Origin: Alphaproteobacteria bacterium UBA2966
GTDB taxonomy: Bacteria > Pseudomonadota > Alphaproteobacteria > UBA2966
Assembly: GCA_002348365.1 (NCBI GenBank)
Contig: DEBC01000137.1
Location: 21,821-85,820, forward strand
Direction: 5' to 3'
DNA length: 64,000 nt
Below, one piece after another: positions 14,476 to 53,148 of the stretch (its first letter is position 1; every line of letters begins with the position of its first letter). The notes below the pieces were generated by a model that saw nothing but the letters and a program-made list of their open reading frames with translations, ran no database searches and had not been told where the DNA came from. Made by a program: the position numbers and the translations under genes.

Positions 14476-15741
14476 CTATAAGAGCCAATAGCGTAACGCC
14501 TCGGGCATCTCCACGTGCCGCCACATTCCCTTGATATCGGCGACGAGGCCTCCTCTTGCGACCAGTCGGCTGATCGCTACGGGGTCCAGTTGCGTGTATG
14601 CATCGTGCGCAACCGCACCCACCAGTGCGCCATACCCATCCCCAGAAAGATCCGGCAGTAGTTCCACCCCATAGCGCGCGACGGCTTCTTCTGGCGCGGC
14701 CATGATATCGTGGACGTCGACGGTGTGTCCGCGCGTCTCAAGTTGCCGAACAAGGTCGATAACCTTGGTGTTCCGAAGATCAGGTACGTTTTCCTTGAAC
14801 GTCAATCCCAAGACCAGGACCCGGCACGGCTCTGAAAGCAAATCGGCGATGCAATCGGCAATGAAGACGCCCATTCCGTCATTGATGCGACGCCCCGCAA
14901 GTATGACTTGAGGGTCGTACCCGATCTCCTGCGCGCGGTGGGCCAGGTAATAGGGATCGACGCCGATGCAATGCCCCCCCACCAATCCCGGCTTGAAAGG
15001 AAGGAAATTCCATTTGGTGCCCGCCGCCTCTAGTACGTCATGAGTGGAGATATCAAGCTTATGAAAGATCTCGGTAATCTCGTTGATGAACGCGATGTTT
15101 ATGTCGCGTTGAGCGTTTTCGATTACCTTGGCGGCTTCGGCAGTCCGTATGTCACGTGCGCGATGCAGATTACCGTTGGTGACGCGGCCGTATACCTCCA
15201 TCAGCCGGTCCGTGACCTCTTCGGTCTGCCCTGAAACCACTTTTGTGATCCGGTCGACGGTATGCTCACGGTCGCCGGGATTAATCCTTTCGGGGGAATA
15301 ACCAAGGAAGAAGTCCGCACCACACTTGAGACCAGCAGCCTCTTCCAGTGCGGGCCCACAGATCTCTTCCGTCGCACCTGGATAAACGGTGCTTTCCAGG
15401 ACAAATATGTCACCTGCTTTGAGCTGACTACCCACGAGATCACATGCCGCCCGCACGGCTGTGAGGTCGGGCACGTGGTCGGGCCCGACCGGAGTGGGCA
15501 CGGTTACGATGTGGATCGAACACGCAGCAATGTCCGACGGCTTCGATGTGAGCCGCAACTTCGCAGCGCGCAGAACTTCTGGAGTAATTTCACCCGTTCT
15601 GTCATAGCCATCGTCGAGCTCGGAAACACGGGTCTCATCGATGTCCAGTGCCACCACTGAAAAGTGTCTGGACAACCCGATCGCCAGTGGCAATCCGACA
15701 TATCCGAGGCCAATCACCGAAATCGCACTATCTGAGGTCAT
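14476..15741 (-). CDS. UDP-N-acetyl-D-glucosamine/galactosamine 6-dehydrogenase (TviB/WbpA/WbpO-like nucleotide-sugar dehydrogenase).
   Basis: N-terminal GxGxxG (ISVIGLGYVGLPLA), the catalytic Cys region (…GGHCIGVDPYYL…) and a UDPG-DH C-domain. Confidence 0.85.
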   Translation of the reverse strand: MTSDSAISVIGLGYVGLPLAIGLSRHFSVVALDIDETRVSELDDGYDRTGEITPEVLRAAKLRLTSKPSDIAACSIHIVTVPTPVGPDHVPDLTAVRAACDLVGSQLKAGDIFVLESTVYPGATEEICGPALEEAAGLKCGADFFLGYSPERINPGDREHTVDRITKVVSGQTEEVTDRLMEVYGRVTNGNLHRARDIRTAEAAKVIENAQRDINIAFINEITEIFHKLDISTHDVLEAAGTKWNFLPFKPGLVGGHCIGVDPYYLAHRAQEIGYDPQVILAGRRINDGMGVFIADCIADLLSEPCRVLVLGLTFKENVPDLRNTKVIDLVRQLETRGHTVDVHDIMAAPEEAVARYGVELLPDLSGDGYGALVGAVAHDAYTQLDPVAISRLVARGGLVADIKGMWRHVEMPEALRYWLL

Positions 15742-15873
15742 GACACCGCTTCGTCAGTGACAGGAAATGGCTCAACCCCAACTGATCGGAGCCGCCGCAT
15801 ACTGAGGCGCGCATTCCCAAGATGTCAACGACCAGAAAGGCCAGAAAAGTCGCAGATTCAAAGGAATAATGGC

Positions 15874-15919
15874 TTGACGTTCATCATATGAACAATATAG
15901 CGTTCGCGGCGTGAACGCT
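15874..15919 (+). promoter_or_regulatory. Promoter/operator-like motif TTGACG-N17-ATAGCGTTC-N5-GTGAACGCT, immediately upstream of the locus regulator gene.
   Basis: A -35-like TTGACG (15874-15879) is followed 17 nt later by ATAGCG. The AGCGTTC/GAACGCT inverted repeat (15899-15919) ends 8 nt before the ATG at 15927. A near-identical motif recurs at 37744-37791. Confidence 0.35.
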
Positions 15920-15926
15920 CGCCCAA

Positions 15927-16610
15927 ATGAATTGTGAGCAGAAGGATCAAGTCCTGAACGAAGAGACTTCAGCAGACGGACAACCGATCGACGCAGAGAG
16001 TCGTATCACTCTCGGCCTGCTAAATGCCGTCCATGAGAACAGTGGCGTCTCGCAGCGGTCCCTCTCGAACGAGCTGGGCATCGCGCTCGGACTCACAAAC
16101 GCCTACCTCAAAAGATGTGTTCGTAAAGGCTTGGTCAAAATGGCTCAAGCACCTGCGAACCGGTATGCCTATTACCTTACCCCACAAGGATTTGCGGAGA
16201 AGAGCCGGCTGACTGCCCGCTACCTGAGGCGATCATTCGATTTCTACAGAGAGGCTCGAAATGAATGTGAAGACCTTCTGCGTCATTGCGTGACCAGGGG
16301 CTGGCGGCGGATCGCGCTGGGCGGATTGGGAGAACTTGCAGAAATTGCAGTACTTTGCAGCCTGCAGCATGACGTTCAGCTGATCGCGGTAATTGATGCT
16401 CGCGTTGACCATGGTGAGTTCATGAAGGTGCCGATCAAGTCTTCGGTTGATGCTGCCAGTGAGTTGGATGCAATTGTCCTTACTGACGTGGCTAAACCAC
16501 AACAAACGTACGACACCTTGGCAAGCAAAGTCCCGCCAGGTCGCATTCTGACGCCTCCGCTTCTCAAGGTGTCGCGCACGCAGGGCGCCGAGGGTTCTTC
16601 AGAACAATGA
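15927..16610 (+). CDS. Winged helix-turn-helix (MarR-like) transcriptional regulator with a C-terminal Rossmann-like domain.
   Basis: …ITLGLLNAVHENSGVSQRSLSNELGIALGLTNAYLKRCVRKGLV… wHTH. It is the first gene of the plus-strand glycan operon. Confidence 0.6.
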   Translation: MNCEQKDQVLNEETSADGQPIDAESRITLGLLNAVHENSGVSQRSLSNELGIALGLTNAYLKRCVRKGLVKMAQAPANRYAYYLTPQGFAEKSRLTARYLRRSFDFYREARNECEDLLRHCVTRGWRRIALGGLGELAEIAVLCSLQHDVQLIAVIDARVDHGEFMKVPIKSSVDAASELDAIVLTDVAKPQQTYDTLASKVPPGRILTPPLLKVSRTQGAEGSSEQ

Positions 16611-17113
16611 ACTGCTGGTACGCCGTTTACACCAAAATGCAGCTCGAGGTCTGGGCGAAGAACAACCTCGAGGAGCGCGGATTTGAAGTGTACCTCCCGC
16701 GTTATCTCAAGCAACGCCGGCATGCACGGCGTACCGAAATTGTTCCACATCCCCTGTTTTCGAGATACCTCTTCGTGAACGTCGATATCGACGCAGGACA
16801 CCGGCCACGTGTGAATACGGCGCCCGGCGTCGCATATCTTGTGAGTTTTGGTGACCGTCCGGCGGCCGTCGCGGATGCGATCATTGAAGAAATCAAAAGC
16901 CGCGAGAATGAGGATGGATACGTTCGGTTAGGCCGTGGTCAAAAATTCGCCAAAGGCGACCGGGTGAAAATCAGTGATGGCGCGCTTTGTGATCACGTCG
17001 GTCTCTTTCAAACCGGCACCGATAATGAGCGCGTTGTCATATTGCTCGATCTCCTGGGCCGTTTGACGCGGGTTAAAGTGCCGCTCGATTCGCTCGTTCC
17101 GGGCGATTTTTGA
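16607..17113 (+). CDS. NusG-family transcription antiterminator paralogue (RfaH/UpxY/LoaP-like), locus-specific.
   Basis: NGN domain (WYAVYTKMQLEVWAKNNLEERGFEVYLP) plus a C-terminal KOW-like region (…KGDRVKISDGALCDHVGLF…). The ATGA overlap with the regulator gene is at 16607-16610. Confidence 0.7.
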   Translation: MNCWYAVYTKMQLEVWAKNNLEERGFEVYLPRYLKQRRHARRTEIVPHPLFSRYLFVNVDIDAGHRPRVNTAPGVAYLVSFGDRPAAVADAIIEEIKSRENEDGYVRLGRGQKFAKGDRVKISDGALCDHVGLFQTGTDNERVVILLDLLGRLTRVKVPLDSLVPGDF

Positions 17114-17180: not shown

Positions 17181-18146
17181 ATGATACTCTGCCGCCCAAT
17201 GAAACAGAATGATTTCGTGAATTCGCACTTCGACACCAAACTCGAAACTTTTGGCGCCTGTGAAATCTGCGGCTCAGATGACTGGACGATCGTGTACAAT
17301 GGGCCGGTCCGAGACGGTGAGTTTGGCTCACTAACCGAATCATCGACAATTGCTAGATGCGGAAACTGCACTGCCGACCGGCTTTCGGAAGACGATTGCA
17401 AAGATGAGGCTTTCTATGTCGGAGCGGACTATCGCAAGTCGCTCGGCCAGGAAGCTGACGCGGCGGCATTTCTGCAGAAGCACGAATCCATGCAATTAGA
17501 GAGATTGGAGGTACTGGATCCAAGTCTTCTGCGGAATAAGAAAATTGCCGACATCGGATGCGCGGCGGGAAGCTACCTCAATTATGCAAAGGGATTTGCC
17601 AGGGAAATCATAGCGATTGAGCCGGGAACCGCGTATCACGCATCCCTGCAAGATCGGGGATTCAAGACTTATGGCTTCACGTCAGATGCATTAGAAGAAC
17701 ATAAAGGGACCGTCGACTGGGCGATTAATTTTGAGACCATCGAACACATCGACAACCCTCGCACTTTCTTGACGGAAATTGTGGACCTGTTGAGGCCTGA
17801 AGGTCGCATAGCGATTAGTACCCCCAATAGAGATGATGCCATGCTCGAACTTGCGGGGGAATCGTATCGTCAGTTTTTCTATCGAGTTCACCACAGGTGG
17901 TATTTCGATAAGAATTCGCTGACGGAATGTGCTCGGCTCTGCGGCCTGGAATTGGAGTCTTATAGGTTCATCCAACGCTACAGCATTTCCAACGCGATGG
18001 TTTGGATCAGGGATGGCAGGCCCGGCGGCAACGTGAATATTCCTTGCGTCGATCATCCAATTCTCGATGCAGCGTGGCGACGCCACTTCGAGTCCAACGA
18101 AACTTCGGATTGGCTGTATGCAATATTCAAGCGCGCAGGATCTTGA
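17181..18146 (+). CDS. Class I SAM-dependent methyltransferase with an N-terminal Cys4 zinc ribbon.
   Basis: CEICGSDDW…CGNC ribbon, then …IADIGCAAGSYL… (motif I) and …LLRPEGRIAISTPN… An alternative ATG start is at 17199. Confidence 0.7.
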   Translation: MILCRPMKQNDFVNSHFDTKLETFGACEICGSDDWTIVYNGPVRDGEFGSLTESSTIARCGNCTADRLSEDDCKDEAFYVGADYRKSLGQEADAAAFLQKHESMQLERLEVLDPSLLRNKKIADIGCAAGSYLNYAKGFAREIIAIEPGTAYHASLQDRGFKTYGFTSDALEEHKGTVDWAINFETIEHIDNPRTFLTEIVDLLRPEGRIAISTPNRDDAMLELAGESYRQFFYRVHHRWYFDKNSLTECARLCGLELESYRFIQRYSISNAMVWIRDGRPGGNVNIPCVDHPILDAAWRRHFESNETSDWLYAIFKRAGS

Positions 18147-19090
18147 CCACCAACCTCATAATTTACGTTGGTGCCCCGGAAGGATATGAAGCCGTGCAAG
18201 ACGTGATGCATTGCTTTGGAAAGACGGAGCACGTGCCCGCACTTCAGAAGACAATTGAATCCCATCTGGAGCAAGCGACGGCGCTATTGGATGCTTCGAT
18301 GAAAGTTCGAATATCAGACGGGATGGTACGGAGCGCTCCTGAGCTTCGTGTGATCAGCTGCGCCACGACCGGCTCGGATCATATCGAACGGGCAGAGCTG
18401 AACAGGCGCAAGATTCCTGTGCACACCCTTCGCGAGGATCCCGAGCTGCTGCAGAACATCACACCGGCTGCCGAACTCTCTTGGGCGCTCGTGCTGGCCT
18501 CGGCTCGACGACTCGCGCCGGCGCTCATGCACACCGCAGGGGGCCAATGGAATCGGGAGGAGTTTCCCGGTCTCATGCTCAACGGCAGACAACTCGGTCT
18601 CATCGGATGCGGACGTATCGGGGGCTGGATGTCACGATACGGTCACGCATTCGGCATGAATGTAGTCGGTTATGATCCCCATATCGATCCGTGGCCAGCG
18701 GGTATTGAGCGGCTGACCATCGAGCAAGTGTTTGAGACCTCGGACGTGATCAGCATCCACGTTCATTTATCGGAGGAGACCCGGGGTCTGGTTTCGCCTG
18801 ATTTGATCCAACGCGTTAAGCGGGGCGCAATCCTTATCAACACTTCGCGCGGCGGCATTGCCGACGAAACATCCATTCTTCGGGCACTTGAATCCGGCCA
18901 GCTGGGAGCGGCCGGTCTCGATGTACTCGAAGGCGAGCCCGATATCGGTGATCATCCGCTCGTGGCCTACGCACGCAAGCATGACAATCTGCTCATCACG
19001 CCACATTGCGGTGGATTCAGCCCGGACGCCGTCCGCAGGGTCTGCCATCGCGCCGCCGAGAAAATTCTTCCCTATCTGGACAACGATTGA
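18143..19090 (+). CDS. D-isomer-specific 2-hydroxyacid dehydrogenase family protein.
   Basis: …LGLIGCGRIGGWMS… NAD motif, …LINTSRGGIADE…, …ITPHCGG… The start is uncertain (TTG 18143, overlapping the upstream stop). The first ~45 codons of ORF 18002 are read-through. Confidence 0.65.
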   Translation: MTTNLIIYVGAPEGYEAVQDVMHCFGKTEHVPALQKTIESHLEQATALLDASMKVRISDGMVRSAPELRVISCATTGSDHIERAELNRRKIPVHTLREDPELLQNITPAAELSWALVLASARRLAPALMHTAGGQWNREEFPGLMLNGRQLGLIGCGRIGGWMSRYGHAFGMNVVGYDPHIDPWPAGIERLTIEQVFETSDVISIHVHLSEETRGLVSPDLIQRVKRGAILINTSRGGIADETSILRALESGQLGAAGLDVLEGEPDIGDHPLVAYARKHDNLLITPHCGGFSPDAVRRVCHRAAEKILPYLDND

Positions 19091-20628
19091 CCCGGCCCGT
19101 CATTCCTTCGATTGAATCGCTCGCAGACGAGCTCACGGACAAGGCTGTGGGGCCCGTGTTCGGGATTCCCGGCGGGGGACCGAGCCTTGAGCTTCTTGAC
19201 GCTCTGGAGCGACGAGGGGTCGCATATGTCCGTACGCATTTCGAAGGGTGTGCGGCCCTCATGGCGGGGACGATGGGGAGGTTGAGTGGGGAACCGGGGA
19301 TGTGCCTCTCGATCAAGGGCCCCGGCTTGGCCAACATGGTTTCGGGTTTGGCCGCGAGCGCGCTGGAGGGGTTTCCATTGCTGGCCGTCTGCGAGGCCTT
19401 TCCGCGCGATACCGACTGGACAGTTCGACACAAAGGCATGGATCATCCGGGTCTGACGTCGGCTGTGAGCAAGGGTTGTTTCGGAATCGCAGGGAAAAGA
19501 GTCGTCGAAAACGCCGTCGCACTTGCGAAGGCAGAAGTTCCCGGGCCCGTCGTTCTCAATCTGAATGACGAACAGGCCCCACCAACGCCGGTCACTCCTG
19601 AAACGAGTGTCCTCGGCCCGGTGATCAAACAAATCGAAATAGCTAAGAGGCCCGTTGTCATTGTCGGTTCACTGGCTGCCCGTTCCGTGTGGGCTAGCCG
19701 ACTGGAGAGTTTGGCGGTGCCGGTCTTTGTCACCGCCGCGGCTAAAGGTGCACTCGATGAAGGCCTGCGATATTCCGCTGGTGTCTTCACGGGAGTCGGG
19801 CTGGAGCACACCCCGGAGGCCAAAATCGTTCCACAGTCTGACCTGGTAATTGGCCTAGGGTTGCGCGCAGGAGAAGTGTTGGCAGCCAAGCCATTCGAAT
19901 GCTCCGCTGTGAACGTCGATACCATTGGATCCGATCAAGGTTTCGAGTTCCTGGCATCGGCTCAGTGCCAAATTCTGGATTCCGTGTTCGACGCGCTGGA
20001 CGCGTTCGATTGGGGGTCGGATCTTGTCGCTGACGTCGTCACGAGCCTGGACAACAGACTTCGATCGAGCGGCTTTCTCCCCGCACACGCGCTTGCCGCG
20101 ATCCAGCGCCGCTTTGCGGGACAGGTCCGAGGCGTGTTCGATACGGGAAACTTCTGCACAATTGCCGAGCATATTTGGCGCCCCGCGCACCCGAACCACT
20201 GTTTGATGTCGGGAAAGGGCCGCTATATGGGTACCGCGCTACCGATGGCAATCGCGGCCGCCGAATATGACCCCTCGGTTCCAACGGTCGCGGTGCTTGG
20301 CGACGGGGGCATCGGCATGTTTCTGGCTGAAGCCAGACTAGCCGTGGAGCGAACCCTCCCGCTCCTGATCGTTCTCATGTCCGATGGTGGTTTTGGATCC
20401 GTCCGCGGCCGCGCGCTGAAGGATGGCCTCACCCAAGCCCCCTTGATCATCAACGATCCATCCTGGCTGATCGTGCTGGAGGGCATGGGCATACCGGGTG
20501 TCGCCGTCAACAAGGAAGAAGACCTGAGCACCGCGCTTGAGGCCTGGGTCCCGGATTCCGGTCCCAGTTACGTGGAGATTTCTTTCGATCCGGACGCCTA
20601 TCAGGAAATGATCATCGGCATTCGATAG
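19087..20628 (+). CDS. Thiamine-diphosphate-dependent enzyme (acetolactate-synthase/benzoylformate-decarboxylase-like fold).
   Basis: N-terminal …VGPVFGIPGG… Pyr domain and C-terminal ThDP-binding …LGDGGIGMFLAEARLAVE…LMSDGGFGSV… (GDG-X24-NN-like). The TTG start at 19087 overlaps the upstream stop. Confidence 0.7.
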   Translation: MTRPVIPSIESLADELTDKAVGPVFGIPGGGPSLELLDALERRGVAYVRTHFEGCAALMAGTMGRLSGEPGMCLSIKGPGLANMVSGLAASALEGFPLLAVCEAFPRDTDWTVRHKGMDHPGLTSAVSKGCFGIAGKRVVENAVALAKAEVPGPVVLNLNDEQAPPTPVTPETSVLGPVIKQIEIAKRPVVIVGSLAARSVWASRLESLAVPVFVTAAAKGALDEGLRYSAGVFTGVGLEHTPEAKIVPQSDLVIGLGLRAGEVLAAKPFECSAVNVDTIGSDQGFEFLASAQCQILDSVFDALDAFDWGSDLVADVVTSLDNRLRSSGFLPAHALAAIQRRFAGQVRGVFDTGNFCTIAEHIWRPAHPNHCLMSGKGRYMGTALPMAIAAAEYDPSVPTVAVLGDGGIGMFLAEARLAVERTLPLLIVLMSDGGFGSVRGRALKDGLTQAPLIINDPSWLIVLEGMGIPGVAVNKEEDLSTALEAWVPDSGPSYVEISFDPDAYQEMIIGIR

Positions 20629-20639
20629 ATTCGACCGTC

Positions 20640-23124: not shown

Positions 23125-23164
23125 ACAAGTTCATGCCTCTCTCATGTAATCGCCGCGGGGCACT

Positions 23165-24726: not shown

Positions 24727-24750
24727 TCGCGCTGGAAAAACAGGCCTGCC

Positions 24751-25752: not shown

Positions 25753-25770
25753 TCGTCGAAAAGGCTTGCC

Positions 25771-45652: not shown

Positions 45653-46833
45653 GCGAAGAGTTCTCAGCCAAGCGTCGACTGCTGTTCATCCTGAATGACG
45701 CACCGTTCTTCGTCTCCCATCGCCTCTCTCTCGCCGCAGCAGCGAGACGTGCGGGATTCGACGTCCATGTCGCTGTCGCGCATGACGCCGATGCCGTCGC
45801 AATCATTGAGTCTGCGGGCATTCATCATCACGACATTCCATTGAAGCGGGGCGCACGCGGCCCATTGGGTGAATTGCGGCTGATCTTCAGGCTCGCAAAC
45901 ATCATCCGCTCGCTGCGCCCCGATCTGATTCACACCGTGACGATGAAGCCAGTGCTCTACGGAGGAAGTCTGGCGCGACTGATGAAGGTGCCCGCAGTCG
46001 TGAACGCGGTTACGGGACTGGGCTACCTGTTTCTGATCGAGGGCACCCTCGCGAGACTGCAACGAGGAATCATCAAGCGGATTTACCGGTTCGCTCTCGG
46101 TCAACCGAACGGCCGTGCCATTTTTCAGAACCCTGACGATTTGCGGCTGTTCCTCGACGAAGGGCTGGTGGCACCGGATGACAGCATCATCATCAAAGGT
46201 ACCGGCGTAGACATGAACCTGTTCCAGTTCCTTCCCGAGCCCGCCGATGAGCCCATCGTCATGTTTCCGGCTCGGGTGATCGGCGACAAGGGTATTCACC
46301 AGTTTGTCTCTGCCGCCAGGACCCTCAAGGGTGAGGGTCTTTCGGCTCGCTTTGTCATTGTTGGTCGGACCGACCCGGATAACCCAACTGATGTTGGTGA
46401 GTCGAAAATCCGGGAGTGGGAACGGGATGGCCTGGTGGAGTGGTGGGGTTTCTCGAATGATATGGCGAGCACCTTGCCCAAGGCACACATCGTCTGCATG
46501 CCCTCTTACCGGGAAGGTCTGCCGCGGGTCTTGATTGAAGCCGCGGCCTCCGGTCGCCCTATCGTTACGGCCGATGTTCCCGGGTGCCGAGAGATCGTCA
46601 AGCACGGCGAGAATGGCTTCCTCGTGCCGGTCAGAGATGGCGCCGCCACGGCGGAAGCGATCGCCAGGCTGCTTGCGGATGATGAACTCAGGCACCAGAT
46701 GGCGCAGCGTTCACGGGAGATGGCGGAACGGGATTACGCGATGGATAAGTTCATCGCAAAGACCTTCGCAGTCTACGAAAAACTGATCCCAAATTCCCTG
46801 CAAGCGGCGGCAGCGAACAGCGTCACGGCATGA
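45649..46833 (+). CDS. Glycosyltransferase family 4 (GT-B, retaining).
   Basis: C-terminal …CMPSYREGLPRVLIEAAASGRPIVTADVPGCREIV…GENGFLV… EX7E-type region. The ATGA overlap is at 45649-45652. Confidence 0.85.
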   Translation: MSEEFSAKRRLLFILNDAPFFVSHRLSLAAAARRAGFDVHVAVAHDADAVAIIESAGIHHHDIPLKRGARGPLGELRLIFRLANIIRSLRPDLIHTVTMKPVLYGGSLARLMKVPAVVNAVTGLGYLFLIEGTLARLQRGIIKRIYRFALGQPNGRAIFQNPDDLRLFLDEGLVAPDDSIIIKGTGVDMNLFQFLPEPADEPIVMFPARVIGDKGIHQFVSAARTLKGEGLSARFVIVGRTDPDNPTDVGESKIREWERDGLVEWWGFSNDMASTLPKAHIVCMPSYREGLPRVLIEAAASGRPIVTADVPGCREIVKHGENGFLVPVRDGAATAEAIARLLADDELRHQMAQRSREMAERDYAMDKFIAKTFAVYEKLIPNSLQAAAANSVTA

Positions 46834-48023
46834 GACATCTTCACGCAGGCCACTGGCTGGGATTTGCCGTATTTCTTACCGTGCCCCTTGCAGTCATCGC
46901 ACCCAAGGGCGGGGTGATTCTTGTCGCCCTGATGGCGCTGCCTTTGCTGGCGCGCACCGTCTCTCGAGGGTTTCATCGTCAGGTGCTGAAATCACCGACT
47001 GCAGCCACTCTGGCGTTGATGTTGATATGGGGCTGTACCAGCGCCCTATGGGCGTTGGAACCGGAAACAGCGCTGCGGCGCTCGGGCTCTCTCGCGTTGC
47101 TCGCGGCGGCTGCGGTGTCCCTGTTTCTGGCGTGCGACGCTCTGGTCGCGGAGGAACGCTGGGTGGCACGGCGGGCAACCGTCGTTGGATTGACCACCGG
47201 CTGCCTCCTGTTGATCGTAGAGTTGTCAGCCGGCCTTCCCGTCAACACACTCGTTCGTGGTGCGGAGAATGTAACCAAACCAACGATTCTCAACGGCGCG
47301 TTGAGCATTGTGGCAATCATGGCGTGGCCCGCGGCGCTGATCCTGAGGCAGCAAAAGAGGCTTTGGCTCGCCATCGGTGTTTTGTTTCTCGCGGTCATTG
47401 TTCTGCTTCTGGGAGATGGGAACTCCGCGCGCGTTGCCTTCGGCCTCGCGGCTCTGGTCGCCGCCGCGGCGCTGCACTGGCCAGACATGTCGAGACGGGC
47501 AATGGTCATCGTCTCGACATTGGGAATTTTGACGGCGCCCCTCGTGCCCGGGACGTTTCTGTCGCCTGACCGCTGGACGGATGCGCTGTCGGGAACCACC
47601 GACTCAGCAATTCATCGGCTGCATATCTGGAACTTCTCGGCCGAGCGCATCGCAGAAAAACCTCTGGCCGGCTGGGGATTGGACGCCTCCAGGACCATTC
47701 CGGGCGGTGACGTTGAGGTCATTCAGGATGGCGCCAGCATGCAACTCCATCCTCACAATGCCCCTTTGCAAATCTGGCTGGAGCTTGGAGTCCCCGGCGC
47801 CGCAGGACTGGCCGCAATCGTGATAATCGCCCTGATGAGCGCCCGACATCTGCCGCGCGAAGCACAGGCTGCCTCACTGGCGACGACCACGGCTGCCCTT
47901 GCCGTCGCTTCCCTGTCGTTTGGAATCTGGCAGCATTGGTGGCTTGCCACCCTCGCGCTCGCAACCGTCGCGGTGAAAATCGCGGTGGCAGACTCCGAAC
48001 CGTCAAACGCCCAGTCGGTGTAG
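46830..48023 (+). CDS. O-antigen ligase/Wzy_C-family protein (WaaL-like ligase, O-antigen polymerase, or PglL/PilO-type O-oligosaccharyltransferase).
   Basis: ~10-12 TM helices plus the Wzy_C signature …MQLHPHNAPLQIWLELGVPG… The ATGA overlap is at 46830-46833. Confidence 0.7.
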   Translation: MRHLHAGHWLGFAVFLTVPLAVIAPKGGVILVALMALPLLARTVSRGFHRQVLKSPTAATLALMLIWGCTSALWALEPETALRRSGSLALLAAAAVSLFLACDALVAEERWVARRATVVGLTTGCLLLIVELSAGLPVNTLVRGAENVTKPTILNGALSIVAIMAWPAALILRQQKRLWLAIGVLFLAVIVLLLGDGNSARVAFGLAALVAAAALHWPDMSRRAMVIVSTLGILTAPLVPGTFLSPDRWTDALSGTTDSAIHRLHIWNFSAERIAEKPLAGWGLDASRTIPGGDVEVIQDGASMQLHPHNAPLQIWLELGVPGAAGLAAIVIIALMSARHLPREAQAASLATTTAALAVASLSFGIWQHWWLATLALATVAVKIAVADSEPSNAQSV

Positions 48024-48061: not shown

Positions 48062-48604
48062 CTACGGATTGATGAGCGGATAGGACCGCTTCACCACCAT
48101 GGCAACGGCGGCAGCCACGATAGCCTTGATCACGTCGCCCGGAATGAAAATCGTGGAGCCCGCGAGCGCCTTCCCGAATTCCATGTTGGCGACCACGGCA
48201 AGCCAGGGAATGCCGATTACGTAAACGACGATGACGCCGCCGATGACGTTAAACAGCAAGAGATTCCAGAAGTTCAAGCGGTTCCAGTACCTCTCAACGA
48301 ACCAGCCGACGACGAAGGCCGCGGGTATCCATGAGAGGATGAATCCGCCGGTCGGGCCCAGAATTACGCCAAAGCCACCCTTCCAACCTGTCAACAGCGG
48401 CAATCCGACGGCGACCAGTATGACGAACAACAGGAGCGACAGACCGCCGCGTCTGGCGCCAAGGATTGAACCGGCCAACATCACGCCGATGTTTTGCACG
48501 ATGATGGGGGCCGGAACGAACGGCGCTTGAAATGGCGGGAAAACAGCGCACGCTGCGGTCAGTGCTGCAAACAGCGCGACAAATACCATGTCTCGTGTAG
48601 TCAT
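48062..48604 (-). CDS. bioY: Biotin ECF transporter S component BioY.
   Basis: Six-TM BioY pattern (…APIIVQNIGVMLAGSILGARRGG…). The ATG at 48604 follows a G-rich RBS. Confidence 0.8.
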   Translation of the reverse strand: MTTRDMVFVALFAALTAACAVFPPFQAPFVPAPIIVQNIGVMLAGSILGARRGGLSLLLFVILVAVGLPLLTGWKGGFGVILGPTGGFILSWIPAAFVVGWFVERYWNRLNFWNLLLFNVIGGVIVVYVIGIPWLAVVANMEFGKALAGSTIFIPGDVIKAIVAAAVAMVVKRSYPLINP

Positions 48605-48729
48605 GATGCCCCCCAAAGGCGTATTGCGAACCGATTTCGGGAATTGCCGGACGCGAGGCCAGCTGAAATGGAACTCTCTTATAGTCCGTCGGGACCCGTC
48701 GCATCAACGCCGCGACGTCGCTGCAATTC

Positions 48730-49359
48730 CTACCCTCTGCGTTTCCAAACTGGGACCACCGGCTCGGGATCATAGCCCCGGGCCTCAATGGACTCAGACA
48801 AATCATCCGCCATTTTCAACGTCTTGATCAGAAGCGGCATCAACAAGGCGATCGCGTTGCGATCAAGCCCTCGTGCCCGCTGGGCTTCGAGTATCTCCTG
48901 AGCCTCACGCATCATCATGGGAATGAATCGTATGACCATGGACAGCATCATGCTCACCTTGGACGGATTGACCCCCAGATGTTTAAGCGGGCGCACGACG
49001 CGCTCCAGGACATCCATCATGTCCGAGACTTTTGTTGTGAGCGTGACCAGAACGGCGAGCAGCAGCAGAACCAGGATGCGAAGGACAGTTTCGAGACCCA
49101 GCATCCAGTCCGTCAGAAACACATGGAACAGAAAGATCGGAACCATGAAGATCAGCGCCGTCCGTAGTTGTCGCAAGGTGTCTTTCCAGGGAAGACGCGC
49201 AACTTGGAACAGGGCCGCGATGATCAGGAGCTCGGCAACGTGTACCGGAATGTTGGAAATGACGAACAGCGCCATGCTTCCGATCACCAAGATCAGAAGT
49301 TTGATCCCCGCCGGTATGCGGTGAACAATCGTGTCACCCGGTACATACAGCGACAGCAT
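48730..49359 (-). CDS. bioN: ECF transporter transmembrane T component (BioN/EcfT/CbiQ family).
   Basis: CbiQ-like TM protein with a conserved C-terminal …ARGYD… motif. It has a 1-nt TAATG overlap with bioM. Confidence 0.8.
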   Translation of the reverse strand: MLSLYVPGDTIVHRIPAGIKLLILVIGSMALFVISNIPVHVAELLIIAALFQVARLPWKDTLRQLRTALIFMVPIFLFHVFLTDWMLGLETVLRILVLLLLAVLVTLTTKVSDMMDVLERVVRPLKHLGVNPSKVSMMLSMVIRFIPMMMREAQEILEAQRARGLDRNAIALLMPLLIKTLKMADDLSESIEARGYDPEPVVPVWKRRG

Positions 49360-50033
49360 TAGGCCATCGCCTGAGTGTAGTAGCGGATCGCGTCGTCGGG
49401 AGCACCGTCTGCCACGACCTGCCCGTCTTCGAACACGATCACACGCTCGAACTCCTCAAGGTGTTCCAGATCATGGGTGACCAGAATGATCGGCTGCTCG
49501 ATGGCGTGTATCGTGTCGAGAACGAGCTTCTTGTTACGCAGGTCCAAGAGTGTCATCGGCTCATCGAACACGACATAACTCGGCTCCATCACCAGCACTG
49601 CCGAGATCGCCAGCATCTGTTTTTCGCCCCCGGACAAAAGATGAGCCGCGCACTGTCTGAGATGTTCCAGCTTGTACTTCCCGAGAATCGAATCAATCCG
49701 GGAAGCGATCTCTTGCTTGGACAACTTGAGATTCTTGAGGCCGAACTCGAGGTCCTCTTCGACCACAGGAAAGACGATCTGGTTGTCCGGATTCTGAAAG
49801 ACGAATCCGACCTTGCGTCTCACCGCCTTGACATCGGTTCTCGTGTCAATCCCATCGACGGTGACAGTCCCCTCGTCCGGAATCAGGAGGCCGTTCAACA
49901 GGCGCACAAATGTGCTCTTCCCCGACCCGTTGGCGCCGATGACACCGACTCGGCGCTCGCCGATTCGCAAGCTGATGTCTTTGAGGACGTGGCGTTCACC
50001 GAAACGCTGGCTGACGTTGGAAATTTCGAACAT
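49359..50033 (-). CDS. bioM: ECF transporter ATPase component (BioM/EcfA/CbiO family).
   Basis: Walker A GANGSGKST, signature LSGGEKQMLAI and Walker B VVFDEP. The internal ATG at 50031-50033 is taken as the start. Confidence 0.8.
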   Translation of the reverse strand: MFEISNVSQRFGERHVLKDISLRIGERRVGVIGANGSGKSTFVRLLNGLLIPDEGTVTVDGIDTRTDVKAVRRKVGFVFQNPDNQIVFPVVEEDLEFGLKNLKLSKQEIASRIDSILGKYKLEHLRQCAAHLLSGGEKQMLAISAVLVMEPSYVVFDEPMTLLDLRNKKLVLDTIHAIEQPIILVTHDLEHLEEFERVIVFEDGQVVADGAPDDAIRYYTQAMA

Positions 50034-50102
50034 GATTCGCTGGATTCTCGCCGCCGGACGCGACCACGCGTATGCTAGCGGCAGGGACATGCAGATGCGA
50101 CC

Positions 50103-51176
50103 TTGGGATCGCGATTACCAGTTAACCCATTGATAGACGGATATCTAATCAACTACCTGTTGCTGGCCTTCCTGGTCACCTATCCGCTGTCGCGGTTCGC
50201 CACCGGCAAACTGGTCAAAGTCCTAAACCGGCACGCGGTGCTCGACCAGCCCAACCACCGGTCCAGCCATGCTCGTCCGGTGCCCCGAGGCGGGGGCATT
50301 GTCGTGATCGGCTTGTTGGTTCTGGCCTGGGGCCACTTCGGAGTCCTGGTGCCTCACGTCGCGCCCGCACTGTTCACTATTCTTGGGCTTGCGCTGGCTC
50401 TCGCCGCGGTCTCCTGGATCGACGACCTCCGAGGGCTCAATCCATTCGCCCGTCTGTTCTGCCATGCCATCGCTGTTGCCATTGGGCTGTGGACGCTTCC
50501 GGACGCCCCCGTGTTTCAGGGACTCGTCGCTCCGTGGATCGACGACCTGATGGCCGCGCTGCTCTGGCTCTGGTTTGTCAACTTGTTCAACTTCATGGAT
50601 GGCATCGACGGCATTACCGGTGCCGAGACCGTCGCCATCGGTCTCGGCGTCACGGTGATCGCGGCACTGGCAAATCTCGGTCCCGATATCGCCCTCTATG
50701 GCCTGACTCTGGTGACGATAACGTTCGGGTTCCTGCGCTGGAACTGGCAGCCCGCCAAGATATTCCTCGGAGATGTGGGAAGTGTCCCCCTCGGCTACCT
50801 TGTCGGTTGGCTCTTGCTGACGTTGGCCGCCGAGGGTCATTGGGCCCCGGCCATCATCCTGCCGCTGTATTATCTGGCCGATGCGACGATTACTTTGTTG
50901 CAGCGCCTGGTGCGCGGCGAAAAGATTTGGTTGGCACACCGCAGTCACTTCTATCAGAGGGCAACCCAAAGCCCGGGAACCCATGCCGGCGCCGTCCGTC
51001 GAGTCAATGCGGCCAATATCGCTCTCGTTATTCTGGCAGTCGTCGCAGCCATGTATCCCGAAATTGCACCACTCCTACTATTATTCGCCGGGCTGATCGT
51101 CGCCGTGTTGCTGTGGACGTTCGCCAATCGCCCGATCAAGGTACCCACGTCCCTCAGCACGCCAGACAAGGATTGA
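50103..51176 (+). CDS. Polyprenyl-phosphate HexNAc-1-phosphate transferase (WecA/WbpL/MraY-family, GT4 of the PNPT superfamily).
   Basis: …NLFNFMDGIDGI… (DDxxD-like Mg site), …IFLGDVGSVPLGY… and ~10 TM helices. The start is uncertain (TTG 50103 or TTG 50130). Confidence 0.75.
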   Translation: MGSRLPVNPLIDGYLINYLLLAFLVTYPLSRFATGKLVKVLNRHAVLDQPNHRSSHARPVPRGGGIVVIGLLVLAWGHFGVLVPHVAPALFTILGLALALAAVSWIDDLRGLNPFARLFCHAIAVAIGLWTLPDAPVFQGLVAPWIDDLMAALLWLWFVNLFNFMDGIDGITGAETVAIGLGVTVIAALANLGPDIALYGLTLVTITFGFLRWNWQPAKIFLGDVGSVPLGYLVGWLLLTLAAEGHWAPAIILPLYYLADATITLLQRLVRGEKIWLAHRSHFYQRATQSPGTHAGAVRRVNAANIALVILAVVAAMYPEIAPLLLLFAGLIVAVLLWTFANRPIKVPTSLSTPDKD

Positions 51177-51180
51177 TCGT

Positions 51181-53148
51181 TTGAGTTTTAACTCACGCAT
51201 TCTCATCGTCGCTGTCCACGACGTCATCATGGCGGCGTTGAGTTTCGAGGCCGCAGTAGCCCTGCGCTATTTCACGTACGGCGCGCCGCAGGAGTTCCTG
51301 TTCCTCTGGGAAGGCACTCTGATCTTTTCCGTGGTTTGCGCCATTACGTTCTGGCGCATCGGTCTCTATCGCGGCATCTGGTACTACGCGTCGCTCAACG
51401 ATCTGATCGCGATATTCAAAGCTGCAACCCTGGCGATCCTTATTTTTCTTCCTGTGCTGTTCGTTCTGACCCGCCTCGAGGACTTCCCACGCACATCGCT
51501 GATCATCAATTGGCCGCTTCTGATCGTCATGCTGGCGGGTCCGAGATTTCTGTACAGGGCCCTCAAGGATGGGAACCTCCAGGCCGCTTTCCAGCGTTTT
51601 GAGATGGACCAGAGCCGAGTCCCGGTACTGCTGGCCGGCGCCGGTGATCAGGCCGATTCTTTCATCCGCGAAATGGCTCGCTCAGGCCTTGGAACCTACC
51701 GCGTGGTGGGAATCGTCGATGACAAGATGGGACGTATTGGCCGTGACATCCGCGGTGTGCGAATTCTCGGCTCCCTCAGCGCCATCAACGATGTCGTCGC
51801 CCGCCTCGAACGCGAGGGCATGCGCCCCCAAAGGCTGATCATCGCTGGCGGCAGCTTTGGCGGAGAGAAGATCCAGGATCTTCTTCAACGTTGTGAGAAC
51901 CTCGGGATGAGTCTTGCCCGGCTTCCCCGCCTCACCGACTTCGATAGCGGACGAGACGTCAATGCGGATGCCACGACCAGCACGGTCCGAAGTTTCGAAC
52001 CACGACCCGTCGATGTTGAAGATCTTCTGGGACGACCTCAGAAGGTCCTCGACCGCGACGCCATGCGGGAATTGGTCTCAGACCGGCGCGTTCTCGTTAC
52101 CGGCGCCGGCGGTACCATCGGGGCAGAACTAACCCGTCAAATCGCCGACTTTCAACCAGCCTGTCTGACGCTCGTCGACAATGCTGAATACAACCTCTAT
52201 CGCATCGATCTTGAGATCAGTGAGCGCCATCCGGACCTGCCACGACGGGCTGCACTTGCCGATGTCAGGGACCCGGAACGACTTGAGGACATATTCAGTT
52301 CCGAGACTCCCGATCTGGTATTTCACGCAGCTGCCTTCAAGCACGTCCCGCTCGTTGAAGCCAATGCCGAAGAAGGCGTACTGACCAATGTGATCGGGAC
52401 TCGCAACGTCGCGGAAGCATGCCGTCGCAATGGCGTTGGTGCGATGGTCCTGATCTCGACTGACAAGGCCGTGTCGCCATCAAATATCATGGGCGCCACG
52501 AAGCGCATTGCCGAACGCTACTGCCAGGCGCTGAGTGCTCAGCCCGGGGGACCGCCCAGCGAAACCCGTTTTGTTACCGTCCGCTTCGGAAACGTTCTGG
52601 GTTCAACCGGGTCCGTCGTACCGTTGTTCAGCCGACAGATTGCCTCAGGGGGCCCGGTGACCGTGACAGATGAGGCGGTCACCCGATTTTTCATGACAAC
52701 CCGCGAGGCCGTCGAACTCGTGCTTCAGGCTTGTGCGTTGAATGGCTCAGACTCGGATGCACGCGGCAAGATTTACGTCCTCGACATGGGAGAGCCTGTA
52801 TGCATCGCTGATCTTGCACATCAAATGATCCGATTGGCCGGGTTGCGGCCGGGCAAGGACATCGACATTCAATTCACTGGCCTTCGGACGGGTGAAAAAC
52901 TGCACGAAGAGCTTTTCGATTCCGACGAAGTCATTTCAGCGACGGCACACCCGTCCATCCGACTCGCGTCGTCGCCAGCGATGGACATTGAACTCCTCCG
53001 GGCTCAAATTGAGAAACTCGGTGAGGTCGCAAAGCATCATAAAACTGCGGACATTCTCGATCTCATCGCGACTCTTGTTCCAGAATTTCGAGCGCCCGAC
53101 GCGACAACTCGAAGCGCTGACTCGATCGCGGTCGCCGGTTCCGAGTAG
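51181..53148 (+). CDS. Membrane-anchored UDP-N-acetylglucosamine 4,6-dehydratase (WbpM/CapD/PglF family).
   Basis: Four N-terminal TM helices, a Rossmann …VLVTGAGGTIGAEL… and the catalytic region …LISTDKAVSPSNIMGATKRIAE…. Confidence 0.85.
   Translation: MSFNSRILIVAVHDVIMAALSFEAAVALRYFTYGAPQEFLFLWEGTLIFSVVCAITFWRIGLYRGIWYYASLNDLIAIFKAATLAILIFLPVLFVLTRLEDFPRTSLIINWPLLIVMLAGPRFLYRALKDGNLQAAFQRFEMDQSRVPVLLAGAGDQADSFIREMARSGLGTYRVVGIVDDKMGRIGRDIRGVRILGSLSAINDVVARLEREGMRPQRLIIAGGSFGGEKIQDLLQRCENLGMSLARLPRLTDFDSGRDVNADATTSTVRSFEPRPVDVEDLLGRPQKVLDRDAMRELVSDRRVLVTGAGGTIGAELTRQIADFQPACLTLVDNAEYNLYRIDLEISERHPDLPRRAALADVRDPERLEDIFSSETPDLVFHAAAFKHVPLVEANAEEGVLTNVIGTRNVAEACRRNGVGAMVLISTDKAVSPSNIMGATKRIAERYCQALSAQPGGPPSETRFVTVRFGNVLGSTGSVVPLFSRQIASGGPVTVTDEAVTRFFMTTREAVELVLQACALNGSDSDARGKIYVLDMGEPVCIADLAHQMIRLAGLRPGKDIDIQFTGLRTGEKLHEELFDSDEVISATAHPSIRLASSPAMDIELLRAQIEKLGEVAKHHKTADILDLIATLVPEFRAPDATTRSADSIAVAGSE

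Follow-up and report, generated by a model that had tools for sequence, protein, structure and literature searches.

A surface-glycan island with two nonulosonic acid modules in an uncultured marine alphaproteobacterium

Gene content and recurrence of the island

The subject of this study is a block of glycan genes densely packed across positions 14476–53148 of a 64-kb window (the whole stretch of 64,000 nucleotides that was analysed) on contig DEBC01000137.1 of Alphaproteobacteria bacterium UBA2966. We conclude that this uncultured marine alphaproteobacterium has in the block a genuine island for the biosynthesis of a surface glycan, and that the island is not unique, since it is put together from modules that turn up, shuffled, in many other uncultured Proteobacteria. 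Domain assignments were based on Pfam and NCBIfam profiles with their own cut-offs, sequence matches to PDB entries, a fold search, and motif checks; genes were counted after overlapping open reading frames (ORFs) had been resolved, and ORFs of at least 100 amino acids were considered when a domain was called absent.

A first-pass annotation, made from the sequence, had described a dense glycan block between a heparinase II/III-like gene and purH, and Pfam together with the annotation of the flanks bears this out. Upstream lie rsmB, rpe and a Hepar_II_III_C protein (12753–14447; Pfam 181 bits), downstream purH (53250–54824), an MFS transporter and two glutamate dehydrogenases, and the genes beyond the island limits (rsmB, rpe, the glutamate dehydrogenases and others) are housekeeping genes. 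The island holds 36 genes rather than the "about 40" that had been proposed, and it is not one co-oriented operon, since its genes fall into 10 strand blocks, with a total of 24 genes on + and 12 on −; tight overlap does hold for 13 junctions, where neighbouring genes overlap by 1–11 nt. Two − strand ORFs (28217–28540 and 28545–29276) were rejected as genes, being antisense shadows of the glycosyltransferase gene GTp1, which lies on the + strand and has 70 homologues. The G+C fraction shows a small dip, from 0.590 in the rest of the window to 0.575 in the island.

The genes previously proposed for undecaprenyl phosphate priming, 4,6-dehydration, sugar oxidation, and GT4-type transfer all pass their Pfam cut-offs, as do the domains of the MsbA/PglK-like ABC exporter and the Wzy_C protein (Table 1). 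The polyprenyl-phosphate N-acetylhexosamine (HexNAc)-1-phosphate transferase (PNPT) has about seven detected transmembrane (TM) segments and scores 50 bits on the NCBIfam WecA model, below the cut-off, and the WbpM/PglF-like dehydratase likewise stays below the cut-off of the PseB model (175 bits); orthologues of this WbpL/WbpM-like pair lie near the cluster in six related loci (L027, L030, L038, L039, L044, and L045). The sugar-oxidizing dehydrogenase passes the NDP-sugDHase subfamily model (363 bits), scores 400 bits on TviB (under the 592 cut-off), and has orthologues of 51–52% identity in L032, L034, and L040. The ABC exporter, with about six TM segments, is closest to HepA (328 bits), followed by MsbA (291 bits) and PglK (259 bits), all under the equivalog cut-offs, and its orthologues occur in 15 loci, 14 of them at 34–46% identity and the sister island L054 at 84%. 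The Wzy_C protein (Pfam 54.5 bits, cut-off 31.7; about 10 TM segments) gave no match in a sequence search against the PDB. It carries an HPHN-x7-G (H-x10-G) motif, of which HPHN...ELG is kept in five orthologues; an H-x10-G motif, which is known from WaaL, and a large late periplasmic loop are typical of Wzy_C proteins of the ligase or oligosaccharyltransferase type. Profile scans found no Wzx, Wzy, Wzz, Wza, or Wzm/Wzt in any island ORF, and no Wzx, Wzz/Wzc, Wza, KpsD/E, or KpsC/S genes in the island or the window. TM segments are confined to the PNPT, the WbpM-like dehydratase, the ABC exporter, the Wzy_C protein, the MBOAT protein, its SGNH-like partner, and the CDP-alcohol phosphatidyltransferase-family protein.

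Supply of nonulosonic acids (NulOs) is encoded twice. The two NeuB/NeuC/CMP-transferase sets proposed earlier are both present, with two NeuB+SAF synthases (Pfam 215 and 228 bits), two Epimerase_2 proteins, and two CTP_transf_3 proteins (52.6 and 75.7 bits), but they are old paralogues from two different conserved pathways, sharing only 34% (NeuB), 36% (NeuC), and 26% (CMP-transferase) identity between the set labelled a/c (module 1) and the set labelled b (module 2). NeuC_b and NeuC_c both pass the TIGR03568 model for hydrolysing UDP-GlcNAc 2-epimerases (356 and 385 bits, cut-off 236) and reach only 120 and 78 bits on the WecB model. The NeuB proteins score 308 and 296 bits on TIGR03569, under its cut-off of 400 although still above the PseI model, and the best NCBIfam model for the CMP-transferases is PseF, with 109 bits for CMPtr_a and 83 bits for CMPtr_b against a cut-off of 206. 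Among solved structures, N. meningitidis NeuB is nearest to both NeuB proteins (about 175 bits), whereas the NeuC proteins differ: NeuC_c is nearest to the epimerase domain of GNE (242 bits), and NeuC_b to a hydrolysing N,N'-diacetylbacillosamine (diNAcBac) 2-epimerase (190 bits, vs 163 for GNE), an enzyme whose substrate is a 6-deoxy sugar. Because the sets are old paralogues and their nearest solved NeuC relatives differ, we infer two separate pathways, which would lead to two different CMP-activated NulOs. Profile scans found no DegT/Aminotran and no hexapeptide or GNAT acetyltransferase, either in the 36 genes of the island or in its flanks within the window, and an assignment of either set to legionaminic acid (Leg) or pseudaminic acid (Pse) was rejected, as the aminotransferase and N-acetyltransferase genes are missing.

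The window splits module 1 into a core (39722–43003) and a group of tailoring genes (17181–26700) about 13 kb apart, and the MBOAT and SGNH-like genes, which are not conserved in related loci, are inserted among the latter. Orthologues of the core (57–74% identity) adjoin the genes for 2HADH_a (the D-2-hydroxyacid dehydrogenase of module 1), the thiamine diphosphate (ThDP) enzyme, and CMPtr_a in other loci. That the island encodes a CE4 deacetylase, a PhyH-like oxygenase, and a ThDP enzyme is confirmed by Pfam or by fold and motif evidence. The ThDP enzyme has the N, M, and C domains of TPP_enzyme proteins and is acetolactate-synthase-like, matching generic acetolactate synthases only (114 bits to catabolic acetolactate synthases in the PDB); one might speculate that it branches sugars as YerE does. 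For the 309-residue dioxygenase, a sequence search against the PDB gave no match, and the fold search alone resolved the family, a double-stranded beta-helix with the invariant HxD...H...R residues, which correspond to the facial triad and the Arg that binds 2-oxoglutarate. CMPtr_a, sulfotransferase a, the CE4 protein, and the dioxygenase have no TM segment, and the two predicted sulfotransferases using 3'-phosphoadenosine 5'-phosphosulfate (PAPS) both exceed their Pfam cut-offs, sulfotransferase a with 110 bits and sulfotransferase b with 32 bits on Sulfotransfer_1 (cut-off 22). Both modules, and almost all related loci, have a gene for a PGDH-like D-2-hydroxyacid dehydrogenase after NeuC, module 1 is always accompanied by the ThDP enzyme and the GFO oxidoreductase, and the CE4 gene always adjoins a sulfotransferase gene; one may speculate that this last pair performs N-deacetylation followed by N-sulfation. 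Enzymes that modify NulOs are poorly known (PMC5378307).

The same families recur well beyond this contig. A first scan of genome contigs with the heparinase-like protein found no relatives, and a scan with one genome per GTDB species gave 40 loci, each from a metagenome-assembled genome (MAG), hosted by marine Rhodospirillaceae, other Alphaproteobacteria, Hyphomicrobiales, Deltaproteobacteria, a Gammaproteobacterium, and Scalindua, with Rhodospirillaceae bacterium ARS1032 the closest (70% identity). When 38 window proteins were compared by BLAST with the ORFs of related loci, with precomputed annotations also used, island genes were found as conserved modules of 35–74% amino-acid identity in at least 40 loci. 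The exact NeuB_c protein occurs on at least 10 assembled contigs; of the six examined, five have the same gene order, Tara Oceans samples included, and the sixth is a 4-kb fragment. The island itself is represented on at least six contigs of marine metagenomes. The sister island L054 (66–91% amino-acid identity) is completely syntenic across 15 genes.

Module 1, in the order NeuB_c-NeuC_c-(MT1)-2HADH_a-ThDP-GFO-CMPtr_a-Sulfo_a-CE4-(dioxygenase), where MT1 is a methyltransferase and Sulfo_a sulfotransferase a, forms an unbroken or partly unbroken run in about 12 alpha- and deltaproteobacterial loci (43–74% identity). The stretch from NeuB to CMPtr is contiguous in L007, L013, L027, L028, L030, L032, and L039/L040/L042, reversed in L031, and partial, owing to a locus end or one missing gene, in L025, L034, and L045, while the order CMPtr-Sulfo-CE4 is kept in about 11 loci. 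Module 2, in the order NeuB-NeuC-2HADH-CMPtr-SQD1-like, occurs in at least seven loci (L010/L049, L011, L014, L029, L054, L055, and the P0158 locus), from three Rhodospirillaceae MAGs, a Gammaproteobacterium, L054, L055, and a further JGI contig. The block of sulfotransferase, methyltransferase MT4, GT4, and Wzy_C genes, whose three junctions in the window all overlap by 4 nt, has the same order in four loci (L007, L015, L018, and L027). In L049, a minimal eight-gene version made up of module 2, methyltransferase MT3, and two glycosyltransferase (GT) paralogues has genes of unrelated function, for sarcosine oxidase and purM, as its neighbours, and the modules can therefore be regarded as functional, mobile units. 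As far as tested, the combination is unlike any characterised locus, as had been claimed, and every related locus comes from a MAG. A separate observation concerns L008 and L029, adjoining parts of the gammaproteobacterial MAG contig JAKEHO010000043: this large island has module 2 with the SQD1-like gene, a second NeuB with a HAD phosphatase (Kdn/Neu5Ac-9-P type), a short-chain dehydrogenase/reductase (SDR), an aldehyde dehydrogenase, a transketolase-like protein, a CE4 protein, a member of the dioxygenase family, and an ABC exporter.

Three GT-B glycosyltransferases are encoded next to module 2. The 31103–32467 protein passes TIGR04396 (389 bits, cut-off 125), whereas GTp1 and GTp2, tandem paralogues of 39% identity with a GT-B fold, stay under the family cut-offs of both TIGR04396 (31 and 26 bits) and BFO_1060 (31 and 32 bits), so that the earlier label "sialyltransferase-like" stands through one full profile pass and two weak relationships to the BFO_1060 family. 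In Tannerella forsythia, genetics has proven members of that family to transfer Pse/Leg (PMC5420450), and we regard the three proteins as putative transferases of NulO, sulfoquinovose, or both. Every homologue of the GT paralogue used as query bears the annotation hypothetical protein, and those few for which an organism is named come from MAGs. Orthologues of MT3 (45–65% identity) adjoin the GT paralogues in L007, L010–L012, L014–L018, L027, and L049. Five methyltransferases dependent on S-adenosylmethionine (SAM) had been counted, of which Pfam supports four (starting at 17181, 26711, 27639, and 44783). Of the proposed O-acetylation pair, the MBOAT half is clear (Pfam 117.7 bits, DltB 173 bits), while its partner gives weak Lipase_GDSL_2/SGNH matches (Pfam E 0.05–0.08) beside one N-terminal TM segment, an FGDSHA motif, and an NSDHLN motif (C-terminal SDH); the pair would be of the PatA/PatB, AlgI/AlgJ/X, or DltB/DltD type.

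Table 1. Genes assigned in the island, in order of position, with the evidence for each.
Feature	Position	Strand	Evidence
NDP-sugar 6-dehydrogenase, TviB/WbpA-like (UDP-HexNAc to uronic acid)	14476–15741	−	UDPG_MGDP_dh N, central, and C domains
HTH_24 regulator	15927–16610	+	Pfam 40 bits
NusG-like factor	16607–17113	+	Pfam 58.7 bits
MT1, methyltransferase (module 1)	17181–18146	+	Pfam, NCBIfam
2HADH_a, PGDH-like D-2-hydroxyacid dehydrogenase (module 1)	18143–19090	+	Pfam, NCBIfam
ThDP enzyme (module 1)	19087–20628	+	Pfam, NCBIfam
MBOAT protein, DltB-like (putative O-acylation pair)	20640–22178	+	
Membrane-anchored SGNH-like protein (putative O-acylation pair)	22297–23124	+	
CMPtr_a, CMP-NulO synthetase a (module 1)	23165–23899	+	CTP_transf_3
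Sulfotransferase a (module 1)	23896–24726	+	Sulfotransfer_3 110 bits
CE4 deacetylase (module 1)	24751–25752	+	Polysacc_deac_1
PhyH-like Fe(II)/2-oxoglutarate dioxygenase (module 1)	25771–26700	+	Fold and motif
MT2, methyltransferase	26711–27616/27661	−	Pfam Methyltransf_25/_11
MT3, methyltransferase (193 aa)	27639–28220	−	Pfam Methyltransf_25/_11
GTp1, GT-B glycosyltransferase	28293–29687	+	
GTp2, GT-B glycosyltransferase	29704–31098	+	
TIGR04396 protein, GT-B glycosyltransferase	31103–32467	+	
SQD1-like synthase homologue (module 2)	32487–33656	−	Pfam, NCBIfam
CMPtr_b, CMP-NulO synthetase b (module 2)	33749–34489	−	Pfam, NCBIfam
PGDH-like 2-hydroxyacid dehydrogenase b (module 2)	34486–35466	−	Pfam, NCBIfam
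NeuC_b (module 2)	35468–36613	−	Pfam, NCBIfam
NeuB_b (module 2)	36610–37641	−	Pfam, NCBIfam
Fused ABC exporter (transmembrane and nucleotide-binding domains), HepA/MsbA/PglK-like, putative flippase	37946–39691	+	ABC_membrane, ABC_tran
NeuB_c (module 1 core)	39722–40777	+	Pfam, NCBIfam
NeuC_c (module 1 core)	40767–42002	+	Pfam, NCBIfam
GFO/IDH/MocA oxidoreductase (module 1 core)	41999–43003	+	Pfam, NCBIfam
CDP-alcohol phosphatidyltransferase-family membrane protein	42998–43819	−	Pfam CDP-OH_P_transf 53.9 bits
Sulfotransferase b	43896–44786	+	Pfam
MT4, methyltransferase	44783–45652	+	Pfam
GT4 glycosyltransferase	45649–46833	+	Pfam
Wzy_C protein	46830–48023	+	Pfam
bioY-bioN-bioM, biotin ECF transporter	48062–50090	−	Pfam BioY, CbiQ, ABC_tran
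PNPT, WecA/WbpL-like polyprenyl-phosphate HexNAc-1-phosphate transferase	50103–51176	+	Glycos_transf_4 103.9 bits
WbpM/PglF-like membrane-anchored UDP-HexNAc 4,6-dehydratase	51181–53148	+	Polysacc_synt_2 358.8 bits

The SQD1-like enzyme of module 2

The predicted UDP-sulfoquinovose synthase of the first-pass annotation is a strong, full-length homologue of Arabidopsis SQD1 (520 bits, about 62% identity, residues 2–387 against 3–388 with no gap) in which the catalytic residues are kept. Y182, H183, and K186 of the YHxxK motif are intact, the segment SFYHLSKVHDS is identical to that of SQD1, and S/T145 (as T145S), Q209, and the MGEYG motif are retained. On NF041015 the protein scores 440 bits, under the 575 cut-off, and it is only 38% identical to a proven alphaproteobacterial SqdB. 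SQD1-like homologues number roughly 8000. At position 101 the window protein has Pro (EQPSAP), vs Arg in the canonical EQRSAP motif. Pro101 is found in all 125 closest SQD1-like sequences examined (the 120 best database matches, four from related loci, and the window protein, at least 68% identical), whereas plant SQD1, S. meliloti SqdB, and a Pseudonocardia homologue have Arg101, and the R101A variant of Agl3 is inactive, indicating that Arg101 is essential (PMC4388408). Unlike SQD1, SqdB, and Agl3, the island protein further carries the R229S and D231H substitutions, and its gene lies inside a NulO operon rather than beside a sulfolipid glycosyltransferase.

This genomic placement is not particular to the window. 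Three arbitrarily picked Pro101 homologues all adjoin Epimerase_2, NeuB, and CMP-transferase genes. In a control set of 80 SQD1-like loci from a metagenome scan, a NulO gene lies within 6 kb in 13 of 30 loci of the Pro101 type and in none of the 44 loci of the Arg101 type (Fisher p = 1e-6), and the corresponding counts for loci with at least 5 kb of flank are 9/17 and 0/27. All 17 NulO-linked SQD1-like sequences fall into two adjacent groups of a neighbour-joining (NJ) tree, which also hold three unlinked members (L058, on a short contig, L060, and L069), and the NulO-linked enzymes carry substitutions of their own (R36K, D40E, R229S, and D231H). The gene is moreover interleaved with NulO genes in several ways, lying between NeuC and NeuB in L078 and between NeuC and CMPtr in L064, while in L050 it is paired with Epimerase_2 alone, with no NeuB nearby. 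The full order in L050, a locus on the 2.93-Mb chromosome of a 7.3-Mb alphaproteobacterial MAG, is MBOAT-Epimerase_2-SQD1-like-SIS_2, followed by the sulfate-activation genes cysN/C and cysD, a KpsF-like isomerase, and a PNPT, and the same genome holds the module 1 island L007. A literature search returned no paper containing both "nonulosonic" and "sulfoquinovose" and none that links SqdB or sulfoquinovose to NulO or sialic acid clusters; the single paper naming both sulfoquinovose and sialic acid topics, on Haloquadratum, treats them as unrelated. The coupling between SQD1-like and NulO genes is unreported and statistically robust. The replacement of Arg101 by Pro was considered as proof of a substrate switch and rejected, since a sister clade that lacks a NulO link also has Pro101, and its member L109 is linked to GT21.

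The destination of the sulfonate can be read in three ways. To the first we give somewhat less than even credence: the SQD1-like enzyme would make ordinary UDP-sulfoquinovose (UDP-SQ), a GT-B paralogue would transfer it, and the resulting glycan, with sulfoquinovose and NulO as separate residues, would resemble the Sulfolobus N-glycan, which contains sulfoquinovose. The very high similarity to SQD1 points this way, as do the minimal cluster, with exactly two GTs for two possible donors, and the neighbours of the gene in the window, which are a CMP-transferase and the TIGR04396 GT, with no adjoining SqdD, SqdX, or GT21 lipid glycosyltransferase. In addition, Agl3 demonstrates that UDP-SQ serves glycans as well as lipids (PMC4388408). 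However, this reading does not explain why the gene stays in the NulO precursor operon rather than beside a GT across rearrangements, why it is paired with Epimerase_2 alone in L050, or why an Arg that is essential in Agl3 has been lost.

A second reading, which we advance only tentatively, draws on these features. Here the SQD1-like enzyme would act on UDP-GlcNAc or another UDP-HexNAc instead of UDP-glucose, giving a UDP-6-deoxy-6-sulfo-HexNAc, which NeuC_b would hydrolyse and epimerise, to which NeuB_b would add phosphoenolpyruvate, and which CMPtr_b would activate, yielding a 9-deoxy-9-sulfo nonulosonic acid, that is, a C-sulfonated sialic acid. Epimerase_2 enzymes are known to act on 2-acetamido sugars only. 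The many different orders in which SQD1-like genes are mixed with those for NeuC, NeuB, and the CMP-transferase (L078, L064, and L050), the restriction of NulO neighbours to Pro101-type loci, and the grouping of the NulO-linked enzymes with their own four substitutions all argue for such a precursor, as does the 6-deoxy sugar substrate of the nearest solved relative of NeuC_b, and module 2 has no other dehydratase or aminotransferase that would account for its LegG-like epimerase. The replacement of the residue essential in Agl3 by Pro is also consistent with it (PMC4388408). On the other hand, the gap-free 62% identity to plant SQD1, with the other active-site residues intact, favours UDP-glucose chemistry; Pro101 also occurs in the unlinked sister clade, where L109 adjoins GT21; the two GT paralogues found with module 2 in the minimal cluster fit CMP-NulO and UDP-SQ donors equally well; and the literature search found no report of such a sugar. 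It is with considerable doubt that we propose a distinct SQD1-like group (Pro101, Ser229, and His231) recruited into NulO operons of uncultured Alpha- and Gammaproteobacteria to make a 9-deoxy-9-sulfo NulO precursor.

The third reading, that the gene serves synthesis of the membrane sulfolipid sulfoquinovosyldiacylglycerol (SQDG), as in phosphate-starved marine bacteria, and is in the island by chance, is very unlikely. SqdB is classically a sulfolipid enzyme, and all three Arg101-type loci examined (L106, L125, and L098, from soil metagenomes) adjoin GT21 lipid-type glycosyltransferases. But no SQDG synthase-type gene adjoins the island gene, unlike in S. meliloti, where a glycosyltransferase gene directly follows sqdB; the same five-gene order with NulO genes is seen in Alpha- and Gammaproteobacteria; the statistical association with NulO genes is strong; and the identity to the proven alphaproteobacterial SqdB is low. 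A BLAST search with S. meliloti SqdD found no homologue in 83 SQD1-like loci (L049–L051 and L054–L133; the window itself was not searched with SqdD). As to the three soil loci themselves, the Glyco_transf_21 protein follows the SQD1 homologue, which in L125 is also preceded by a PMT_2 protein, and the arrangement looks like a sulfolipid or glycolipid type that differs from sqdBDC and sqdB-sqdX.

Other genes of the island and its surroundings

The HTH_24 regulator and the NusG-like factor overlap by 4 nt and head a 12-gene + strand block. They may form a dedicated antitermination system for a long operon, although the pair is not kept with the cluster elsewhere, except for a weak HTH match in L013. 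An RfaH-type ops element, GGCGGTATGATG (11/12 positions identical to GGCGGTAGnnTG; 37792–37803, + strand), situated in the 304-nt leader of the exporter operon, was rejected as a chance-level match: 3.3 matches of 11/12 are expected window-wide, and neither the sister island L054 nor any of 17 other loci has the element.

The bioMNY genes sit between the Wzy_C gene and the WbpL-like gene, 12 nt from the start of the latter, which is divergent. They have the same place in the identical contigs L001–L005 and are absent from related glycan loci; we consider them a passenger and not part of the glycan system. The gene of the CDP-alcohol phosphatidyltransferase-family protein is convergent with that of the GFO oxidoreductase and overlaps its 3' end by 6 nt. 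The protein has about five TM segments, weakly matches an archaetidylinositol-phosphate synthase model, and, among the related loci searched, has an orthologue only in the closest relative, L027 (38% identity); it may add a phospho-alcohol substituent to the glycan.

Rfam and tRNA scans of the window gave no matches, and there is consequently no tRNA-linked integration signature. Outside the island, the + strand of the window encodes an HpcH/HpaI aldolase, a third D-2-hydroxyacid dehydrogenase, and an aldo/keto reductase at 6696–9601, followed by a 321-residue ORF (9598–10563) with no Pfam match. The two glutamate dehydrogenases downstream, about 350 nt apart, are a 1616-residue NAD-specific large enzyme (56556–61406, −) and a 460-residue ELFV-type enzyme (61756–63138, +).

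A probable lipid-linked pathway and its alternatives

On the basis of family assignments and co-occurrence, we consider it probable that the island makes a surface glycan linked to undecaprenyl diphosphate (Und-PP) by a route combining a Wzk/PglK-type flippase with a WaaL/PglL-type transferase, for which we propose the following substrates, order of steps, and acceptor. The WbpM/PglF-like dehydratase would make a UDP-4-keto-6-deoxy-HexNAc derivative, and the WbpL/WecA-like transferase would load the first sugar-phosphate onto undecaprenyl phosphate. Module 1 would start from UDP-GlcNAc with the GNE-like hydrolysing epimerase and the NeuB-type synthase, its product being tailored by the GFO oxidoreductase, the ThDP enzyme, the 2-hydroxyacid dehydrogenase, the methyltransferase, the CE4 protein, the sulfotransferase, and the Fe(II)/2-oxoglutarate dioxygenase, while module 2 would supply a second NulO through the LegG-like hydrolysing epimerase, the NeuB-type synthase, the second 2-hydroxyacid dehydrogenase, and its own CMP-transferase, coupled to the sulfonate-forming SQD1-like SDR. 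At the cytoplasmic face, the GT4 protein and the three NulO-transferase-like GT-B enzymes would lengthen the lipid-linked chain, which the soluble PAPS sulfotransferases and SAM methyltransferases, having no TM segments, may then decorate; because PAPS and SAM are cytoplasmic, sulfation and methylation are expected before flipping. The fused ABC exporter would flip the finished Und-PP-glycan, as PglK and Wzk do, the Wzy_C-family protein would move it onto lipid A-core (WaaL-like) or proteins (PglL-like), and the MBOAT protein with its anchored SGNH-like partner might O-acylate it outside the cytoplasm after flipping. The end product would be a short, strongly anionic, sulfur-rich glycan with NulO residues. 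That the product is sulfated, sulfonated, methylated, and acetylated is a prediction from gene content. The first-pass interpretation was largely sound but imprecise.

Close parallels are the Wzk/PglK pathways of the Helicobacter pylori O-antigen and Campylobacter jejuni pgl, which share with the proposed island pathway a PNPT initiator, cytoplasmic assembly of an Und-PP-glycan, and a fused MsbA-like half-transporter, operate without Wzx/Wzy/Wzz, and end in a WaaL or PglB/PglL transferase, a step here assigned to the Wzy_C-family protein. However, the island exporter reaches only 259 bits on the PglK model, whose cut-off is 1000, and the two NulO modules, the sulfotransferases, and the SQD1-like enzyme have no counterpart in those pathways. 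Synthesis of Neu5Ac by NeuABC (N. meningitidis SiaA/SiaC/SiaB and E. coli K1) likewise uses a hydrolysing UDP-GlcNAc 2-epimerase, a NeuB+SAF synthase, and a CMP-transferase, but each island set has a PGDH-like dehydrogenase in addition, both NeuB proteins are under the TIGR03569 cut-off, and module 1 adds genes of kinds not known from Neu5Ac pathways (ThDP, GFO, methyltransferase, CE4, sulfotransferase, and dioxygenase). The general O-glycosylation system of T. forsythia (BFO_1060/Tanf_01245; terminal Pse/Leg) shares relatives of the GT-B NulO transferases and a dedicated NulO locus, and its NulO and glycan, as is predicted for the island, are heavily modified (PMC5420450; PMC5378307); in contrast to the island, it has full Pse/Leg pathways with aminotransferases, belongs to another phylum, and uses other machinery for export and transfer. 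The marine sulfated capsule loci of Vibrio sp. KMM 8419 and Cobetia marina resemble the island in having PAPS-type sulfotransferases within a surface polysaccharide cluster, as far as their abstracts tell, but these are loci for polymer capsules, and the abstracts mention no NulO module, SQD1-like enzyme, or PglK-like flippase.

As an alternative to a short lipid-linked glycan, the island might make a long capsular polysaccharide or exopolysaccharide, with the Wzy_C protein as polymerase and the ABC exporter moving the polymer. Pfam Wzy_C does take in some polymerases, the best NCBIfam match of the exporter is HepA, a heterocyst polysaccharide exporter, and several paralogous GTs could act repeatedly. 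We nevertheless find this improbable, since the profile scans of island and window found none of the Wzx, Wzz/Wzc, Wza, KpsD/E, or KpsC/S genes, the Wzy_C protein has the conserved H-x10-G motif together with a large late periplasmic loop, and a fused MsbA-type exporter accompanied by WecA and WaaL is the Wzk/PglK pattern. A chance juxtaposition of unrelated sugar genes, a recombination mosaic with no common product, might be suspected from the ten strand blocks, the unrelated bioMNY insertion, and the two pieces of module 1 some 13 kb apart, but it is highly unlikely, given that the same families co-occur in dozens of loci in varied orders and contexts (a signature of functional coupling), that synteny with the sister island is complete over 15 genes, and that primer, exporter, and ligase are each present exactly once, complete for one lipid-linked pathway.

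Several observations weigh against the proposed lipid-linked pathway itself. The ten strand blocks and the bioMNY genes inside the island leave co-regulation not evident, and no cultured organism was found to carry the system, all 40 genome loci being MAGs. The Wzy_C protein is not assignable to ligase, O-oligosaccharyltransferase, or polymerase, its only match being the O-oligosaccharyltransferase TfpM with 21 bits, and the NCBIfam equivalog cut-offs are missed by NeuB, both CMP-transferases, the exporter, the PNPT, and the SQD1-like protein alike. The island lacks a 4-keto reductase or aminotransferase that could complete the WbpM product, and we know of no precedent in characterised NulO pathways for a ThDP enzyme, two 2-hydroxyacid dehydrogenases, a GFO oxidoreductase, or a CDP-alcohol transferase.

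Taken together, the island is of a known kind, probably a lipid-linked surface-glycan locus containing NulO, and what is new is the uncharacterised modular family to which it belongs and the coupling of SQD1-like with NulO genes. Sugars of the sialic acid family and sulfated glycans govern how phages attach and how cells are grazed, aggregate, and are recognised at their surfaces, and they also contribute to the dissolved organic sulfur and carbon of the sea. An uncharacterised modular system for NulO glycans of strongly anionic character is common to abundant uncultured Proteobacteria of sea and soil, and in it the ThDP enzyme, the 2-hydroxyacid dehydrogenases, the Fe(II)/2-oxoglutarate dioxygenase, and the pair of CE4 and sulfotransferase have no described role in NulO chemistry. 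The family of GT-B paralogues, now annotated as hypothetical proteins, is a candidate addition to the NulO transferases, a class with very few known members, and would be a new family among them. The SQD1-NulO coupling would reveal either a second bacterial use of sulfoquinovose, in a glycan and not a lipid, or a new class of sugar, and if the latter were true, the 9-deoxy-9-sulfo NulO would be the first C-sulfonated sugar of the sialic acid family, displayed at the cell surface by dedicated GT-B transferases.

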